DNA from: a virus
DNA: 16,588 bases
Direction: 5' to 3' (one strand)
Virus record (IMG/VR): IMGVR_UViG_3300049451_000021
Span: 1 to 16,588 of that record
Position numbers and translations under genes: made by a program. Under the pieces are notes generated by a model, which saw only the letters and a list, made by a program, of their open reading frames with translations, was not told the origin of the DNA and did not search any database. This document shows positions 1 through 16,588 of this stretch, piece by piece (positions within the stretch are counted from its first letter, which is position 1; the number at the start of each line of letters is the position of its first letter).

Positions 1-127
1 CCGCTCGCCGAGCTGGCCCACGAGCGCGGGGACCCACACGAGATCCACGCCGTGCTCACCACCGTCCGTGCCGCCCTGCTCGACCTCGCCACGTCCATGC
101 AGGCCTCAAGGCTCAAGATCGAGAGAG
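1..127. repeat. Left copy of a 127-bp exact terminal duplication, identical to 16462..16588.
   Basis: I compared the two ends base by base and all 127 positions match. Confidence 0.97.
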
Positions 128-9422: not shown

Positions 9423-10603
9423 GCAACACCGGCGCCTACGACCCGTCCCTGGAGGACCTGATCCGAGGTCCGCTGCCGCAGCTGTGGCAGGTCCTGGTCT
9501 ACGACGCCGCCGGCTCCCAGATCCCCCTGCAGGTCCAGTCGTGCTCCCTGACGTTCGACGAGGCCTGGTGGCCCTACGTCCAGGGCAGCGTGACCGCCCG
9601 GATCTCCGACGATCAGGCCACCCTCGACCGGCTCGACCCGCGCCAGAAGGTCCGCGTCGAGGTCCAGGCCGGCTACCGGCTACCCGACAACAGCAAGGAC
9701 ATCCACCTGCTCGCCCAGTGCTGGCTGGTGTCGCGCTCAGTCGACCGCCCCGCGAACCTGCTCGAGCTGAGCATCCAGGGCGGGGAGTACATCGCCGGGC
9801 GCGTCGTGGAGTTCCTCAACGTCGTCGCCATCCCGAACAAAGCCGCCTGGAGCTCCACCACCGCCGCGCGCGCCGCGGTCAACGACTGCCTCACCGCGGC
9901 CGGGCAGGTCGCCTCCAGCGCGGACTGGGACTACGCCGCCGCCAGTCAGGAGACCGGCTGGTCCGGTGACGGCACCGACCGGTACGGGGTGCAGCTGCCC
10001 GCCCAGGGAGCCTCCCCGCTCGACGTCGCCGCCGACATCGCCGCCCGGGTCGGTGCCTGGCTGTACTGCGACGGCGCCGGGGTCTGGCACATGCCCGTCA
10101 AGCCCTCCACCGCCTCGGCGGTCACCGCGCACCAGCTCAAGGTCGGCAACAACGGCACGGTCATCGACTCCGCGACCGTCCTGGAACGCGGCGACGACTG
10201 GGGAAACGCCGTGCTGGAGGAGATCACCTACGCCAACGCCTCCGGCGCCGAGGTGAAGGTCTGGGGCCGCGCCCGCCTGGCCAGCGGGCCGTTCGCCGTC
10301 GCCACGATCGGCGCCGTGGTGGTCAAGGTCGACCGGGCGATCCGCACCTACGTCTCCCAGGCGCGCGCCGACCAGATGGCCGGCGCCCTGCTCGGCAGCG
10401 TCCTGACCCTGGGCCGGTCCCTCAGCCTCGACGCGGTCGCCGCCTACTGGCTGCGCCCCACGCAGACCGTCACCGTGCAGCTGCCCCTCGGTGGCCAGGA
10501 GCGGGTCCTGGTCTCGGCTGTGCGGTTCAACCTGGACGACGGGTCGATGGCCATCAGGACCCGGCTCCCGGAGAACGTCTCCGGGATCACGATCGGAGGC
10601 TAG
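9419..10603 (+). CDS. Minor tail protein in the tail-tip (Tal) position.
   Basis: This 394-aa ORF is coupled to the upstream gene by a GTGTGA overlap and follows the Dit-position gene. Confidence 0.55.
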   Translation: MSNTGAYDPSLEDLIRGPLPQLWQVLVYDAAGSQIPLQVQSCSLTFDEAWWPYVQGSVTARISDDQATLDRLDPRQKVRVEVQAGYRLPDNSKDIHLLAQCWLVSRSVDRPANLLELSIQGGEYIAGRVVEFLNVVAIPNKAAWSSTTAARAAVNDCLTAAGQVASSADWDYAAASQETGWSGDGTDRYGVQLPAQGASPLDVAADIAARVGAWLYCDGAGVWHMPVKPSTASAVTAHQLKVGNNGTVIDSATVLERGDDWGNAVLEEITYANASGAEVKVWGRARLASGPFAVATIGAVVVKVDRAIRTYVSQARADQMAGALLGSVLTLGRSLSLDAVAAYWLRPTQTVTVQLPLGGQERVLVSAVRFNLDDGSMAIRTRLPENVSGITIGG

Positions 10604-12697: not shown

Positions 12698-13120
12698 TCA
12701 GATCCCGGCGAGGCCCCGGACCACCCGCGCCGGGACCATCAGCCGGTCGCGTGAGCCCCACGGCACCGCGCCGATCTCCTCGGCGTGCCGGCGCACGGCC
12801 GCCTCCGGGATGCCGAGCAGCCGCGACGCCTGCTCGAGGGTGAGCAGCGCGGGCAGCACGGCGAGCGCACCGGCGAGTGTGTCGGCGACGTCGTCGCGAC
12901 GTGTCGGTGTCGCGCTGTTGACGGCGACGTCGTCGCGACGTGTCGGCGACACGTCGGTCCCCGGCATCGGCGTGATCCGCATCGCATCGGCGGGGATCTG
13001 CCAGCCGGTCGACGTCTTCACCGCACCGGGGATCTCACCCGCCTTGCACCAGCGCTGAACCGTACGGGCATCGACGCGGTGCAGCGTGGCGAACTGGTCC
13101 GGGGTCACGTAGGCCTCCAT
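12698..13120 (-). CDS. DNA-binding protein with two excisionase-family (HTH_17/MerR-like) motifs; candidate excisionase or regulator.
   Basis: The N-terminal motif is VTPDQFATLHRVDARTVQRWCKAGEIPGAVK..GWQI. The C-terminal motif is LTLEQASRLLGIPEAAVRRHAEE. The linker between them carries a duplicated PTRRDDVA. Confidence 0.6.
   Translation of the reverse strand: MEAYVTPDQFATLHRVDARTVQRWCKAGEIPGAVKTSTGWQIPADAMRITPMPGTDVSPTRRDDVAVNSATPTRRDDVADTLAGALAVLPALLTLEQASRLLGIPEAAVRRHAEEIGAVPWGSRDRLMVPARVVRGLAGI
12883..12946. repeat. Two perfect 25-bp direct repeats, CGGCGACGTCGTCGCGACGTGTCGG, at 12883..12907 and 12922..12946.
   Basis: I read these directly from the sequence. The period is 39 bp and in frame, and each copy contains the palindromes CGACGTCG and GTCGCGAC. 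Confidence 0.9.
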
Positions 13121-13150
13121 GATGGATATGCATCGGTTCGGTTGCGGTCC

Positions 13151-13199
13151 CGAAGGTCAGGGCCCTGGCCTCTACGGAGGGCAAGGGCCCTGACCTTCG
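13151..13199. terminator. Strong hairpin: a perfect 16-bp stem with a 17-nt loop. It is a candidate factor-independent terminator without a U-tract.
   Basis: CGAAGGTCAGGGCCCT at 13151..13166 is the exact reverse complement of AGGGCCCTGACCTTCG at 13184..13199. The hairpin lies in a non-coding gap directly after the stop of the 13201..13320 ORF. Confidence 0.5.
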
Positions 13200-13200
13200 C

Positions 13201-13375: not shown

Positions 13376-14260
13376 TCAGTGCTTTGTCGGGCGATACGGA
13401 CTGAAGTGGTCATGCACCCGCGTCATCGCCGTCCGCAGTTCGTCGTCGTCGACGTCGAGATAGACCTGCGTGACCGCCAGCGAGCTATGCCCGAGCGAGC
13501 GCTGCACGACGCGGATGTTGGTGCCCTTGCGCAGCATCGTCGTGGCGAAGGCGTGACGCAGCTGGTGCATCGTCGCGCCGTCCAGGAGCCGGCCCACGAC
13601 CCTGCCGACCCAGCGCGGCGACAGGTGCCCGTCGCAGTGGCCGGGGAACACATAGCCGGCGGCGTCGCGTAGCTGCTCGGCCAGGTCGACGTCGATCGGG
13701 ATGGAGCGCGGCCGCCCGCCCTTGCCATGCACGATCAGGCTGTGCCCGACGAGGTCGTCCACGACGTCGCGGCTGTGCACCTGGGCGACCTCGGCGCGGC
13801 GCAGTCCGTGCTCGCACGCGAGCACGAGCATGAGCTGCTCGCGGGTGTTGGCATGTGCCAACGCCGCGCTGTAGACCGCCAGCGCCGCCGGCCTGGGCAC
13901 GCCCCGCGACGGACGCACGACCGGCAGGCCCAGCGCGGGGTCGACGTCGACCCGGCCTGAACCGTGGGCCCACCTGTAGAAGCCGACCAGCGCCGCCCGG
14001 ACTGCACGCCGGCGCTCGCGCGACCACCGCGCCCGCAGCCGGCCCAGGTCCTCGTCCCACACCTCGAGGCCCATCCACTCCAGCAGCTGCGCCGTCGTGA
14101 CGTCGCCCGGACCACCGGTGACCTCACGAGACAGCTGCGCCAGGACCTGCCGCCGGCTGCCGATCGTCGAGCTCGCGCGCCCCGCCGCACGCAGCGCCGT
14201 CAGCCACTCCTCGATCCACTCCGACCACACCGGTGAGACCGGCCACTTGCTCAGCGCCAT
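13376..14260 (-). CDS. int: Tyrosine recombinase / phage integrase.
   Basis: The catalytic pattern is present: HGLRRAEV (Arg), HQLRHAFAT (His-x-x-Arg), LGHSS (His) and TQVYLDV (Tyr). GGAGGG lies 7 nt upstream of the ATG at 14260. The open frame continues upstream to 14392 but overlaps the preceding gene. Confidence 0.9.
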   Translation of the reverse strand: MALSKWPVSPVWSEWIEEWLTALRAAGRASSTIGSRRQVLAQLSREVTGGPGDVTTAQLLEWMGLEVWDEDLGRLRARWSRERRRAVRAALVGFYRWAHGSGRVDVDPALGLPVVRPSRGVPRPAALAVYSAALAHANTREQLMLVLACEHGLRRAEVAQVHSRDVVDDLVGHSLIVHGKGGRPRSIPIDVDLAEQLRDAAGYVFPGHCDGHLSPRWVGRVVGRLLDGATMHQLRHAFATTMLRKGTNIRVVQRSLGHSSLAVTQVYLDVDDDELRTAMTRVHDHFSPYRPTKH

Positions 14261-14310: not shown

Positions 14311-14628
14311 TCAGCCGACGATTGCCGCGACATCGTCGAGCATCAGCGAGACCTGGCCGCCGAGGTAGGTCCGTGTGTCCTCGAGGTGCCACTCGACCGA
14401 CGTCGACGACGCACCCGGGTGGTGCTCGGCAGGGACGTAGGACTCGATCACCCAGACCTGGGACTCCAGCGTGATGTGAATCTTCACCAGCGCCTCACCG
14501 GACGCCGAGCGCACCACCCACTCCGAGGCGTCGTGGTGGCCACGATTCAGGATGTCGACGTGCGTCAGCCCCGCATCCAGCAGCGCCGCCCACGTGATGT
14601 ACCCGTCACGGCGCTCGGCGTCGGTCAC
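14311..14628 (-). CDS. Hypothetical protein (105 aa).
   Basis: Its GTG start overlaps the stop of the upstream gene (GTGA). GC3 is high. I recognise no motif. Confidence 0.55.
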   Translation of the reverse strand: MTDAERRDGYITWAALLDAGLTHVDILNRGHHDASEWVVRSASGEALVKIHITLESQVWVIESYVPAEHHPGASSTSVEWHLEDTRTYLGGQVSLMLDDVAAIVG

Positions 14629-15161
14629 GCCTCTTCCCCGGCTTCAATGGCAGCGATGAACGCGGTCCGGTTGTGGCTGTCGAGGGACCACAGCGTGCGG
14701 CTCAGCTCACCCCGTGCCAGCGATGCGACCAACGCCAGGATCGCCTGCTCCCCGGAGGAGTAGACACCGGCGGCGTAGCGCCACGACCCGGGACCAGTCG
14801 CCTCAGCCACGTCATAGTCGATGTAGGCATACGTCTCGCCGGCGTCCATCTCGAGCGTGACCAGGCCACACTGCACCGAGCGCGCTACCTGGCCGGTGGC
14901 AATCAGCAGTTCGGTCGCGGCTACAGCCGATCGCGATCCACTAGCCCAGGTCCGCAACAGGGTCGCCACCTGATTCGCGGTCATGGCAGCGAGGTCCTGG
15001 TCGTTCCTGCGAAGCACGCCGCCGTAGCAGGCGTTGCAGATCACGTCGACCTGGTCTTCGACCGTGTCGTCGTTGAGGTACTTGGCCACCTCGAGGGCGC
15101 CGACGTAGCGGCTGCACTCGACGCAGTGCCGGCTTTCGTCGCCGAGATCCGCGGCGCTCAC
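14625..15161 (-). CDS. Hypothetical protein (178 aa) with an N-terminal CxxC...CxxC pair.
   Basis: Its GTG start overlaps the repressor stop codon (GTGA at 15161..15158). The two pairs are CVEC and CNAC, zinc-ribbon-like. I recognise no other motif. Confidence 0.55.
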   Translation of the reverse strand: MSAADLGDESRHCVECSRYVGALEVAKYLNDDTVEDQVDVICNACYGGVLRRNDQDLAAMTANQVATLLRTWASGSRSAVAATELLIATGQVARSVQCGLVTLEMDAGETYAYIDYDVAEATGPGSWRYAAGVYSSGEQAILALVASLARGELSRTLWSLDSHNRTAFIAAIEAGEEA

Positions 15162-15478
15162 GCTGCAGCCTCGAGCACTGACCAGAAGGTTAGGGGTTCG
15201 AGTCCCTTCGGGCGCACAGTCTCTTCCTCGCCGAACAACCAGCCCACCGAGACGCCGAGCGCGTCCGCCAGGGCGACCAGGTCGCCAGCGAACCAGGCAC
15301 TTTCACCCCTGAGCCGACGCGACAGGGTCGACTGAGTGATGCCCAGCGTCGTCGCCAGCTCGCGCTGCTGAATCTTGCGGCGCCACAGCACGTGGTGCAC
15401 CCGCTGGCCGATGAGCACGTCAATCTCTGCGCGTTGCACGGTCGCTCCCATGCCCTGAATCTTCCGACGCCGAGGCAT
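15158..15478 (-). CDS. XRE/Cro-CI-family helix-turn-helix repressor.
   Basis: IGQRVHHVLWRRKIQQRELATTLGITQSTLSRRLRGES is a classic XRE HTH. The gene is divergent from a Cro/Xis-like gene. If the leftward promoter is as I propose, the ATG at 15451 is a possible leaderless start. Confidence 0.8.
   Translation of the reverse strand: MPRRRKIQGMGATVQRAEIDVLIGQRVHHVLWRRKIQQRELATTLGITQSTLSRRLRGESAWFAGDLVALADALGVSVGWLFGEEETVRPKGLEPLTFWSVLEAAA
15185..15216 (+). other. Putative attP core: a mimic of a tRNA 3' end (variable loop, T-arm, acceptor 3' strand and discriminator).
   Basis: The sequence reads AGGTT-AGGGG-TTCGAGT-CCCTT-CGGGCGC-A. No complementary 5' acceptor strand (GCGCCCG) lies upstream, so this is a fragment and not a tRNA gene. 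The antisense frames give the tell-tale peptides GLEPLT and RDSNP. Confidence 0.6.
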
Positions 15479-15549
15479 CGTGCGTCAACACGCCGCGCCA
15501 TACGTCGATGATTGACACTGATTGCACCAGGTGCATAGCGTCACGCCAC
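15452..15549. promoter_or_regulatory. Divergent back-to-back promoter and operator region (the genetic switch).
   Basis: Rightward: TTGACA (15512..15517), an 18-bp spacer, then TAGCGT (15536..15541), with an ATG at 15550 (leaderless). Leftward: TTGACG (reverse complement of 15483..15488) and GAAGAT/AAGATT (reverse complement of about 15458..15464). A perfect 13-bp palindrome, TGCACCAGGTGCA (15523..15535), sits in the rightward spacer. Confidence 0.5.
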
Positions 15550-15762
15550 ATGACGACTCGTGAGAATCAACGCTCTACACCCGAATCGGACGACTGGCTA
15601 TCCGTCACGGCCGCGGCCGGCCTGCTCGCCGTCAGCAGACGGACCATCTACCGCTACATCGAGCTGGGCCACCTGCCCAAGCGCCAGCTGCCCGGCAACC
15701 GCGTCCGCCTGGCCCGCGCTGACGTGCTCGCGCTGCTCAAGGAGTCGGAGCGCTCAGCATGA
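15550..15762 (+). CDS. Excisionase-family HTH (HTH_17) DNA-binding protein in the Cro position.
   Basis: WLSVTAAAGLLAVSRRTIYRYIELGHLPKRQLPGNRVRLARADVLALL matches the excisionase/MerR-like HTH pattern. It is the first gene of the rightward string. The alternative upstream ATG at 15508 lies before the predicted -35. Confidence 0.7.
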   Translation: MTTRENQRSTPESDDWLSVTAAAGLLAVSRRTIYRYIELGHLPKRQLPGNRVRLARADVLALLKESERSA

Positions 15763-16352
15763 CCGCCGCCCGGTCGTCCGTCGTGCCGATCGAGGTAGCG
15801 CGTCGACGGCGTATCCCCTACGCCCAGGTGCGGGCCCACATCGCCCGCGACACCAACCTGTCCGTCATGGCCCGGCACCTCTACACGCTGCTGTGCGTCT
15901 ACGCGAACGCCGACGGTGAGGCCAGGCCCTCGGGTACGACCTTGCAGGGCGAGCTGGGCTGCTCTGAGAACACCCGCAAACGTGCCGTCAACGAGCTGGT
16001 GAAGGCCGGCTATCTCGAGGTGCAGGCACGCACGGACGAGCGTGGCCGGCAGACGGCGAACCTCTACATCCTGCTCGATGACTTCGGCATCGTTGACGAT
16101 GCGGCAGCGCGGATACCGGCACGTCGCGGCACCAGTAGGGGGGCCACCCATGGCCCCCCCCAAGGGGGGGCCACCAGTGGCCCCCTGGAGGGGGCCACCC
16201 ATGGCCCCGGGAGGGGGTCACCCATGGCCCCCCCTCAGGGGGGGCCACCCACGACCCCCCCGTATGAACAACCAGGTAGAACAGCGCGCGCGCAAGACCT
16301 CCGCGCGCTGCGTGAGGCAGTCAGCAAGAAGGGGTCGGCCGATGGACCGTGA
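15759..16352 (+). CDS. Winged-helix DNA-binding protein, replication-initiator-like, with a Gly/Pro-rich repeat linker.
   Basis: It overlaps the upstream gene by ATGA. LSVMARHLYTLLCVYANADGEARPSGTTLQGELGCSENTRKRAVNELVKAGYLE is a typical phage/plasmid wHTH (HTH_36-like). The C-terminal half is encoded by the repeat array at 16138..16261. Confidence 0.6.
   Translation: MTAARSSVVPIEVARRRRIPYAQVRAHIARDTNLSVMARHLYTLLCVYANADGEARPSGTTLQGELGCSENTRKRAVNELVKAGYLEVQARTDERGRQTANLYILLDDFGIVDDAAARIPARRGTSRGATHGPPQGGATSGPLEGATHGPGRGSPMAPPQGGPPTTPPYEQPGRTARAQDLRALREAVSKKGSADGP
16138..16261. repeat. Array of five tandem units of about 23-27 bp, each a G/C-rich dyad of the form GGGGCCA-CCCA-TGGCCCC. Candidate replication-origin iterons.
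   Basis: Dyads: 16138..16159 (9-bp arms), 16166..16185 (8-bp arms, loop CCAG), 16191..16208 (7-bp arms), 16213..16232 (one mismatch) and 16238..16261 (degenerate). Confidence 0.85.
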
Positions 16353-16588
16353 GCGGATCGAGCGCGAATTCCTGGCCCTCGAGCAGTGGATGGACGAGAC
16401 CAACCCGCCCCTGCTGGCCGTCGTCGTCCTGGCCAACGGTGCGGGTCACGCGTTCACGTACCCGCTCGCCGAGCTGGCCCACGAGCGCGGGGACCCACAC
16501 GAGATCCACGCCGTGCTCACCACCGTCCGTGCCGCCCTGCTCGACCTCGCCACGTCCATGCAGGCCTCAAGGCTCAAGATCGAGAGAG
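16342..16588 (+). CDS. Hypothetical protein: 5' part of the junction-spanning ORF, which continues at 128..186 of the unique sequence.
   Basis: The ATG at 16342 overlaps the stop of the initiator-like gene by 11 nt. The frame stays open to the window end and is in phase with 1..186. Confidence 0.6.
   Translation, partial: MDRERIEREFLALEQWMDETNPPLLAVVVLANGAGHAFTYPLAELAHERGDPHEIHAVLTTVRAALLDLATSMQASRLKIER
16462..16588. repeat. Right copy of the 127-bp exact terminal duplication, identical to 1..127.
   Basis: I compared the two ends base by base and all 127 positions match. Confidence 0.97.

Follow-up and report, generated by a model that had tools for sequence, protein, structure and literature searches.

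A tRNA-Arg fragment within the repressor gene

The DNA analyzed here is the whole of the viral record IMGVR_UViG_3300049451_000021 (16,588 nt), which we refer to as the window and to whose positions all plain coordinates refer. It carries a leftward XRE-family repressor gene, rep (15158..15478, − strand), in which the 3′ part of a transfer RNA (tRNA) gene is embedded. We consider it probable that this arrangement represents integration-dependent immunity, whereby the attachment site of the phage (attP) lies within the repressor gene, the free genome is read through into a tail that is a probable degradation signal (degron), and the tail is lost on integration through a TGA supplied by the host. 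The identity of the tRNA-derived core, the use of the same sequence as attachment (att) repeats in a related prophage, the logic of the truncation, and the conservation of the tail ends were established in this analysis.

The longest open reading frame (ORF) of rep encodes 106 amino acids (aa), and its translation ends in ...TVRPKGLEPLTFWSVLEAAA*. All the repressor homologues, and the gene call of the source itself, start at the ATG at 15451 rather than at 15478, which gives a protein of 97 aa. Residues 34–81 match the Pfam helix-turn-helix (HTH) domain HTH_3 (E = 2e-9), and the PHROG matches are transcriptional repressor families. The original prediction had placed the tRNA fragment inside an XRE repressor, past the HTH domain and with only WSVLEAAA and the stop beyond it, and both the translation and the position of HTH_3 agree with this.

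On the + strand, 15187..15216 reads exactly as had been described: a variable loop (AGGTT), a T-arm (AGGGG-TTCGAGT-CCCTT), an acceptor 3′ strand (CGGGCGC), and a discriminator (A). The match is in fact longer, because the 35 nt at 15183..15217 (+), within rep codons 88–99, are identical to nucleotides 40–73 of a tRNA-Arg(ACG) plus the next base. This segment, hereafter the core, is the putative common core of attP and comprises the anticodon-stem 3′ strand, the variable loop, the T-arm, the acceptor 3′ strand, and the discriminator with one further base. Weaker similarity continues to 15177, with 2 mismatches in 6 positions (15177..15182, +, ACTGAC versus ACGGAT in the host), and C15182 stands in place of the host base T39. 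By our own arithmetic, an exact match of 34–35 nt to one given sequence has a chance expectation of ∼1e-16 in 2 × 16.6 kb.

A scan of IMG/VR with the 30-mer yielded 20 loci, mostly on viral contigs of 16–18 kb, several of which have identifiers in the style of IMG isolate genomes. ARAGORN found a complete tRNA-Arg(ACG) with the fragment as its 3′ end in six of these loci (L008 and L012–L016), and its sequence is GCGCCCGTAGCTCAATGGATAGAGCATCTGACTACGGATCAGAAGGTTAGGGGTTCGAGTCCCTTCGGGCGCA. The 5′ acceptor strand is GCGCCCG, the strand that had been guessed for an actinobacterial tRNA-Arg, and these six genes also answer the concern that no tRNA gene might share this 3′ end.

No complete tRNA is present in the window itself, as had been stated, and only nucleotides 40–73 of the tRNA-Arg were recognized. 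Rfam gave nothing at the gathering score in the window and no tRNA-family match in 15050..15300 even at E ≤ 10; the sole match in that interval was the tRNA-like mascRNA (13.8 bits, E = 3.6), which rests on the T-arm and acceptor. ARAGORN, however, calls an 86-nt "tRNA-Cys(GCA)" at 15132..15217 (+), and this raises the alternative that the segment is a genuine, unusual phage-encoded tRNA overlapping rep in antisense. Apart from the call, a partial 5′ strand (GCGCTCA, 15154..15160) that can pair with the acceptor 3′ strand speaks for such a tRNA. The call is built on the real T-arm and acceptor fragment, but its 86 nt demand a long extra arm, which a tRNA-Cys normally lacks, and its 5′ part is coding sequence of the repressor tail and of the following gene, orf178, that is not conserved in relatives. 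ARAGORN made no call in four relatives with the same core (L009, L010, L019, and L021). We therefore rejected the call as an artefact that lacks Rfam support, and regard a real tRNA here as extremely improbable. As a likely false positive, the call could mislead automatic annotation.

Evidence that the core is an attachment site

The evidence that the core functions in integration comes from the contig IMGVR_UViG_3300014692_000018 (26,548 bp), in which it is present twice, 16,069 bp apart. The exact direct repeat is 35 bp, CAGAAGGTTAGGGGTTCGAGTCCCTTCGGGCGCAC, and is identical to 15183..15217 of the window. Copy 1 ends a complete tRNA-Arg, into which an XRE repressor on the opposite strand reads; copy 2 is an incomplete tRNA end, past which lies a host-like terminator hairpin. 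Between the two repeats lie homologues of TerL, portal, and capsid proteins (∼30% identity to those of the window) and of the integrase (Int; 38%). Int is located just inside the partial copy, at what is an int-side (attR-type) junction, in the same placement as in the window. By these similarities, the prophage appears to be a distant relative from the same broad phage group. The proposal of a putative attP thus gains support, since the same 35 bp form the direct repeats around an integrated ∼16-kb prophage.

The core is also conserved in a manner unlike that of the HTH domain. Among eight diverged repressors, all 10 of the codons for invariant residues in the core were identical, whereas the HTH domain had 7 such codons of 30 (Fisher p = 2.3e-5), and the third codon positions of the core were invariant. 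The comparison indicates that the core is conserved at the DNA level, synonymous sites included. An identical core was found in repressors with unrelated N-domains (Cracklewink, L006, L007, and L020). The variants seen were GAGT to GAAT in the T-loop and AGGTTA to AGGTTG, and these are likewise found in L050, a real prophage junction, or in the isolated phage Barebow.

The junction L050 was observed in an isolate of Cellulosimicrobium cellulans (GCA_042723755.1, JBHXIL010000001.1, ∼9600..9790) and is the int-side, attR-type junction of a small prophage. It consists, in order, of a host terminator hairpin, the core variant CAGAAGGTTGGGGGTTCGAATCCCTTCGGGCGCAC, a remnant of a repressor tail (CSGAWPADDEVADVLVGPWGEAA*, with its stop within GTGA), and Int, which is 48% identical to the integrase of the window.

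We also considered that the tRNA-like stretch is not a functional attP but an ancestral relic, or a motif (VRPKGLEPLTF) that the repressor needs, and that the phage integrates elsewhere, for example near 13120..13200, or never. This peptide motif is indeed kept across many repressors, and our scans found no attL/attR pair of exactly this phage. A peptide requirement would not account for conservation at the nucleotide level at all synonymous positions, and AlphaFold predicts the motif region to be disordered. The edges of the conserved block are those of the tRNA 3′ part and of the 35-bp att repeat of a real prophage, and the only variants are tRNA-core variants that recur at L050 or in Barebow. 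Moreover, an intact tyrosine integrase of the same family adjoins such cores in integrated prophages. We thus consider this explanation very unlikely, and the comparative evidence supports the identification of 15183..15217 as attP.

Predicted truncation of the repressor by integration

In the repressor frame, the core encodes VRPKGLEPLTF. At all seven repressor–tRNA (attL-type) junctions, six with a complete tRNA and the seventh on the contig L023, this peptide is followed directly by TGA. The TGA is the reverse complement of tRNA nucleotides 39–41 (TCA), the stop being supplied by the host base T39. All seven repressor-side junctions read TCAG, whereas each of the 13 repressor-bearing free forms reads CCAG or ACAG, which gives TGG (Trp) or TGT (Cys), so that the frame continues. 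In the window, C15182 in place of T39 changes TGA to TGG (Trp99), and the frame runs on for eight codons, WSVLEAAA.

The original prediction had proposed a comparison of the repressor C-termini of free and integrated forms, and this showed that the integrated copies of relatives are cut directly after ...LTF. It had also expected the tail to be replaced by host-encoded residues, which must be corrected: T39 makes a TGA directly after F98, and the tail is merely removed. The prophage form of the window's repressor is predicted to end at F98 (89 aa from the conserved start) and to keep the whole HTH domain. In the AlphaFold model of the repressor, residues ∼20–82 form a confident helical domain, and the C-terminal residues from ∼91 to 106 (91–95 and 97–106) have pLDDT < 50.

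A different arrangement was observed in the IMG/VR prophages L004, L005, L011, and L015–L018, several of which have isolate-genome-style identifiers. Their att-site sequence seems to start at the anticodon loop (ACTACGGATCAG...) and extends at least 11 nt beyond the tRNA end (CACTGTGTTGA).

In L012–L016 and L008, a phage-supplied G+C-rich hairpin lies directly 3′ of the rebuilt tRNA, e.g., GAAACGGCTCCCACTTCGGTGGGGGCCGTTTC. It falls within the repressor ORF, where it encodes ...NAETAPTEV..., and may be a replacement terminator of the tRNA. Such a hairpin was considered for the window and rejected, as none comparable was seen to the right of the core.

The repressor tail as a candidate degron

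The codons W-S-V-L-E-A-A-A and the stop (15158..15184, −) would be removed by integration and are a candidate ssrA-like degron. The mycobacterial ssrA tag ends in -YALAA. The tails of the repressor family are 8 to ∼60 residues long and of widely differing sequence, but almost all have the end -LALAA, -LELAA, -FGLAA, or -LGLAA; a few end in -LALVA, -YALAS, or -LALTA. Of the 24 tails listed, 14 end in -LAA, and the others include -LTA, -LVA, -LAS, and -AAA. Free-form tails ending in -LALAA, -LELAA, or -AAA bear out the resemblance to ssrA-type ends that had been noted for the three terminal alanines. The C-terminus in the window, -LEAAA, fits, as a sequence resemblance only, the pattern XXXAA, which is the tag rule applied to integration-dependent immunity systems (PMC8092301).

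WSVLEAAA, the shortest tail of the family, also ends the repressor P0023/L042, whose DNA-binding domain is ∼55–60% identical to that of the window and in which two of the Ala codons differ synonymously. This recurrence on a divergent repressor, with synonymous differences, argues that the tail is translated and conserved, and the tail appears to be under selection. AlphaFold predicts it to be disordered. Such a short, disordered, ssrA-like tail probably marks the viral form for ClpXP-type proteolysis.

Another explanation is that the overlap reflects compaction of a 16-kb genome, that the repressor works in both its forms, and that the chief role of the read-through is to bring the stop of rep over the next start (GTGA) for translational coupling. 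The tail is very short and ends in -AAA rather than -LAA, Int has no tag, and relatives with different downstream ORFs also keep the stop of rep over the next start; each of these points fits compaction. So do the tail of L013/L022, which has no -AA end, and the prophages L004, L005, L011, and L015–L018, whose repeat already contains TGA and whose repressor would be unchanged by integration. Coupling by itself, however, would not need an Ala-Ala C-terminus, and -LALAA-type ends are kept on tails of widely differing length and sequence. In addition, in place of the host TGA, 13 of 13 repressor-bearing free forms carry a sense codon, TGG or TGT, that is one mutation away from it, and the codons of the AAA end vary synonymously between lineages. 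On balance, compaction is a rather unlikely explanation, and we favor integration-dependent immunity.

Several observations nevertheless weigh against this interpretation. The tail of the window ends in -EAAA, not in the -LAA of most relatives, and has only eight residues, fewer than the published truncations of 20–35 (PMC8092301) and 33 residues (PMC4557955). In the two-junction prophage, the reconstructed viral tail ends in -DADL, not in -AA. The C-terminus of the integrase, ...YRPTKH, has no ssrA-like end. In L004, L005, L011, and L015–L018, where the repeat already holds the TGA, the repressor (...SLSQHSVRPKGLEPLTF*) would be the same in the free and the integrated state; in this neighboring prophage family, the overlap of rep and attP thus does not appear to alter the protein.

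The scans for integrated copies must also be counted here. A single copy of the window's repressor lineage looks integrated, on the 545-nt contig L023, which breaks off 8 nt beyond the stop; its repressor, ∼85–89% identical to that of the window, stops after LTF and is followed by tRNA anticodon-loop sequence. L023 is ambiguous: a free phage with a longer core could be the source of its 12 tRNA-like bases to the left of the core, since L004, L005, L011, and L018 have this very sequence at the phage side of their core. No integrated copy of the window's repressor type was found among species-representative genomes scanned with the repressor alignment, where the only match was spurious and lay inside the housekeeping genes panB/panC of Accumulibacter, or in IMG/VR scanned with the repressor alignment and with a pattern for the integrated junction. 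A scan of JGI metagenomes with the core and a degenerate repressor pattern returned five loci, all of them free forms. Searches with homologues of orf178 and of the integrase gave more free forms and the attR-type junction L050, with no attL/attR pair of the window's lineage, and the cluster members of the repressor matches contained no additional truncated forms.

In several relatives (P0008, P0014, L010, and L025/P0025), the tail contains a CxxC...CxxC segment resembling a zinc ribbon, e.g., TRITCPRCGRTSYNPNDVREGYCGSCHDW, before the -LALAA end. The N-terminus of orf178 (∼15060..15130) likewise begins with CxxC...CxxC.

Integrase, neighboring genes, and control region

The tyrosine integrase gene (13376..14260, −) encodes 294 aa from the conserved ATG, with a longest ORF that extends to 14392 (PF00589, E = 1e-20; phrog_1), and homologues of the 294-aa protein cover 100% of the query. 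It lies downstream of rep on the same strand, with orf178 and orf105 between them. The integrases of relatives end in ...DIAASA, ...DIAATA, or ...RLRAIA. In the Mycobacterium abscessus prophage systems, some Rep and Int proteins have no recognizable tags (PMC8092301), so a tag on Int is not strictly required.

The GTG start of orf178 (14625..15161, −) overlaps the repressor stop (GTGA). This gene had no Pfam or PHROG match, and only four homologues were found. The next gene, orf105 (14311..14628, −), has homologues of 69–84% identity in L025, L028, and L037–L040. A rep stop that overlaps the start of the following ORF (ATGA or GTGA) also occurs in L039, L040, L042, L045, and the attR remnant of L050, and it is kept in relatives whose downstream ORFs differ. 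Given this overlap in the window and in relatives, a single operon probably comprises rep, orf178, orf105, and int, and integration would split it.

A divergent control region (15452..15549) separates rep from the rightward genes. It contains a conserved TTGACA (15512..15517) and a dyad, TGCACC-A-GGTGCA (15523..15535), that occurs once in the window and is conserved as ATGCA-N5-TGCAT in L031, L032, L033, and L023. Together they are a candidate operator over a putative rightward promoter; a scan of 14500..15800 for consensus promoters and terminators found nothing. The first rightward gene (15550..15762, +) occupies the "cro" position and encodes an HTH_17 protein with an excisionase/MerR-like fold (PF12728, E = 1.4e-11; phrog_66). 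Its longest ORF begins at 15508 and its conserved start is at 15550; the homologue in L033 has 70 aa, and the analogous gene of Cracklewink is annotated as "excise." This protein and a second HTH_17 protein (12698..13120, −) match excisionase-type PHROGs and generic DNA-binding families, and, judged by these matches, either could be Xis, Cro, or neither.

The core as a possible joint for module exchange

Many small actinophages that are otherwise unrelated have this tRNA-Arg core in their repressor genes, and it is exactly at the core that the similarity between relatives breaks off. On the tail/int side, L045 and L047 share 300 nt with 100% identity, and on the repressor side their identity is ∼50%. 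For the window compared with L009 and L021, the identity is 83–89% toward the repressor and ∼51% toward the tail. Furthermore, the same tails (WSVLEAAA,.GVCEH.., and SG.WRRLRARCR..) occur on both repressor clades. Because of this pattern, we tentatively suggest, as a possibility with somewhat less than even chances, that the shared core is a fixed recombination joint at which immunity modules (the DNA-binding domain of the repressor, the operator, and early genes) are swapped against integration modules (the tail or degron, the downstream ORFs, and the integrase). Such swaps could occur by integrase-mediated exchange between attP and attL or attR when a phage superinfects a cell with a resident prophage; ordinary homologous recombination at the shared 35-mer is an alternative cause.

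On a 1-kb contig (L041; JGI 3300053129 Ga0500628_040972), two HTH genes (∼83 and ∼741) flank a homologue of orf178. The ends of both genes lie over one and the same tRNA-like 3′ fragment, which is not that of the window (reverse complement GGGTTCGGGGTTCGAGTCCCTGACGGCGCAC), and one of the tails ends in -ESAA. This arrangement may be a second type of attP or a duplicated module.

Genome organization and host

Positions 1..127 and 16462..16588 form an exact terminal direct repeat of 127 bp. The window is therefore an assembly that is circular (or terminally redundant), with 16,461 bp of unique sequence. Its G+C content is 70.8%. The rightward genes encode an HNH endonuclease, terminase, portal, a capsid–protease fusion, tail proteins, and an endolysin. 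The leftward genes are those for an HTH protein, int, orf105, orf178, and rep, and they are followed by the rightward HTH_17 gene and a replication initiator gene.

The window fits the small-genome actinobacteriophages (14–18 kb) of Arthrobacter, Gordonia, Rhodococcus, Microbacterium, and Curtobacterium in its size, its capsid–protease fusion, and the order of its structural genes. The fusion protein shares 31–43% identity with its counterparts in those small-genome phages of Arthrobacter, Gordonia, Curtobacterium, and Microbacterium that matched best (37–38% for the Gordonia phages EricDab, Emperor, and SallySpecial), and TerL, portal, and capsid are 28–38% identical to those of Microbacterium phage PensacolaC28. 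Relatives of the integrase, at 45–49% identity, were found in genomes of Rhodococcus, Cellulosimicrobium, Gordonia, Mycobacteroides, and Mycolicibacterium. Based on the G+C content and the named hosts of the integrase and capsid relatives, we infer, at the level of the phylum only, that the host is a member of Actinomycetota.

Proposed mechanism and comparison with known systems

We propose that the window is the non-integrated, circular form of a small temperate phage of the siphovirus type with a high-G+C actinobacterial host. In the free genome, C15182 would give a Trp codon, translation would continue through WSVLEAAA, and the repressor's viral form would be marked for ClpXP-type proteolysis. 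The tyrosine integrase would recombine the core with a host tRNA gene, with the crossover within the 35-bp identity and probably at the T-loop, because the anticodon-loop region has no match. Integration would rebuild an intact tRNA-Arg and set a host TGA directly after F98, yielding a tail-less and presumably stable repressor that would shut off the rightward promoter, and it would sever orf178, orf105, and int from the repressor promoter. That the long form is degraded, that the short form represses, and where the promoter and operator lie is what we infer from the arrangement.

In the window, rep, int, and the two ORFs between them share a strand and face a divergent HTH gene, and the intergenic region contains a conserved dyad; this layout is that of the published system (PMC3694055, PMC4557955, PMC8092301, PMC5559632). 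In integration-dependent immunity, attP lies within rep, a C-terminal degradation tag is lost on integration, rep and int point leftward, and cro points rightward (PMC3694055, PMC4557955). The original prediction had likened the window to mycobacteriophages BPs, Brujita, and Charlie (Broussard et al., 2013), and the summaries of that system in PMC3694055 and PMC4557955 sustain the comparison. According to these summaries, the two have in common an attP inside the repressor ORF, rep and a tyrosine int on the same strand facing a small divergent HTH gene, a longer viral C-terminus with an Ala-rich ssrA-like end, and a shorter form after integration that keeps the whole HTH domain, with int parted from the rep promoter. 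Compared with the system as summarized there, the window has two extra ORFs between rep and int, an Int without an ssrA-like end, and a divergent gene with the excisionase-type HTH_17 fold. The tail has 8 residues in the window and 33 in BPs gp33, in which the stabilizing tail mutation A135E raises lysogeny (PMC4557955). Searches of phage databases found no sequence similarity between the window and BPs.

The genome of 16.5 kb is far below the smallest mycobacteriophage genomes of 41 kb (PMC5559632), and its size and gene order had been regarded as a departure from the known systems. The Gordonia phages of cluster CW and the M. abscessus prophages, however, provide precedents (PMC5559632, PMC8092301). 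The CW phages (GMA5, GRU3, Jeanie, and McGonagall) are temperate siphoviruses of 17.1–17.7 kb with attP-in-repressor immunity; their diverged repressors share one identical attP core, as here, and in GMA5 an additional ORF separates int from rep (PMC5559632). Unlike the window, they target a tRNA-Lys, have a different repressor and integrase, and are cultured with known hosts (PMC5559632). A tRNA-Arg attB is used by UmaThurman, Twister6, and Wizard (PMC5559632). In the M. abscessus prophages, Int lies directly downstream of Rep or three to five genes away, the attL stop is formed by the first bacterial base, and the tags are of the XXXAA type, all of which resemble the window, whereas the truncations of 20–35 residues, the larger prophages, and the other attB sites do not (PMC8092301).

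Immunity repressors annotated in Mycobacterium phages Cracklewink and Bipper (cluster Y), in Gordonia phage UmaThurman, and in the M. abscessus prophages prophiGD43A-5 and prophiT37-1 carry the same or nearly the same tRNA-Arg 3′ core. The repressor of Cracklewink contains the exact 35 nt with unrelated flanks, reads ...VRPKGLEPLTF-C..., ends in -DAA, and adjoins a tyrosine integrase. These phages and prophages differ from the window in their size (50–78 kb), their unrelated repressor N-domains and flanks, and an int directly downstream of rep. Similar to the window in organization are Curtobacterium phage Barebow (18.3 kb) and PensacolaC28 (16.7 kb), which have the same succession of terminase, portal, capsid–protease fusion, tail, and endolysin genes, and then a leftward int and an HTH gene holding a tRNA-Arg 3′ fragment. 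Their HTH genes are annotated merely as DNA-binding proteins, and the Barebow tail ends in -RRAS. In PensacolaC28 (L029, PP978844), the tRNA-Arg-like fragment (14466..14503) lies in the sense orientation within HTH gene 20 (...EGWEFESLRAHTVLRQ...) and is followed by CACTGTGTTGAGACAGTG, the same sequence as after the tRNA in L015–L017. The tyrosine integrase of this phage (13009..13885) is annotated as two separate coding sequences.

On this comparison, the system of the window appears to be an uncultivated instance of a known design, and the understanding of the mechanism is unchanged. For annotation, a repressor that reads ...VRPKGLEPLTF followed by Trp or Cys would mark a tRNA-Arg attP, and its prophage form should be annotated as truncated at that point; when cloned repressors are used as immunity markers, the truncated form must be used (PMC8092301). 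The finding would extend integration-dependent immunity to an uncultivated family of ∼16-kb phages with 70.8% G+C. It would also represent an unusually compact case, in which a single base next to the attP core makes the difference between a stop and read-through into an Ala-tailed extension of eight residues.

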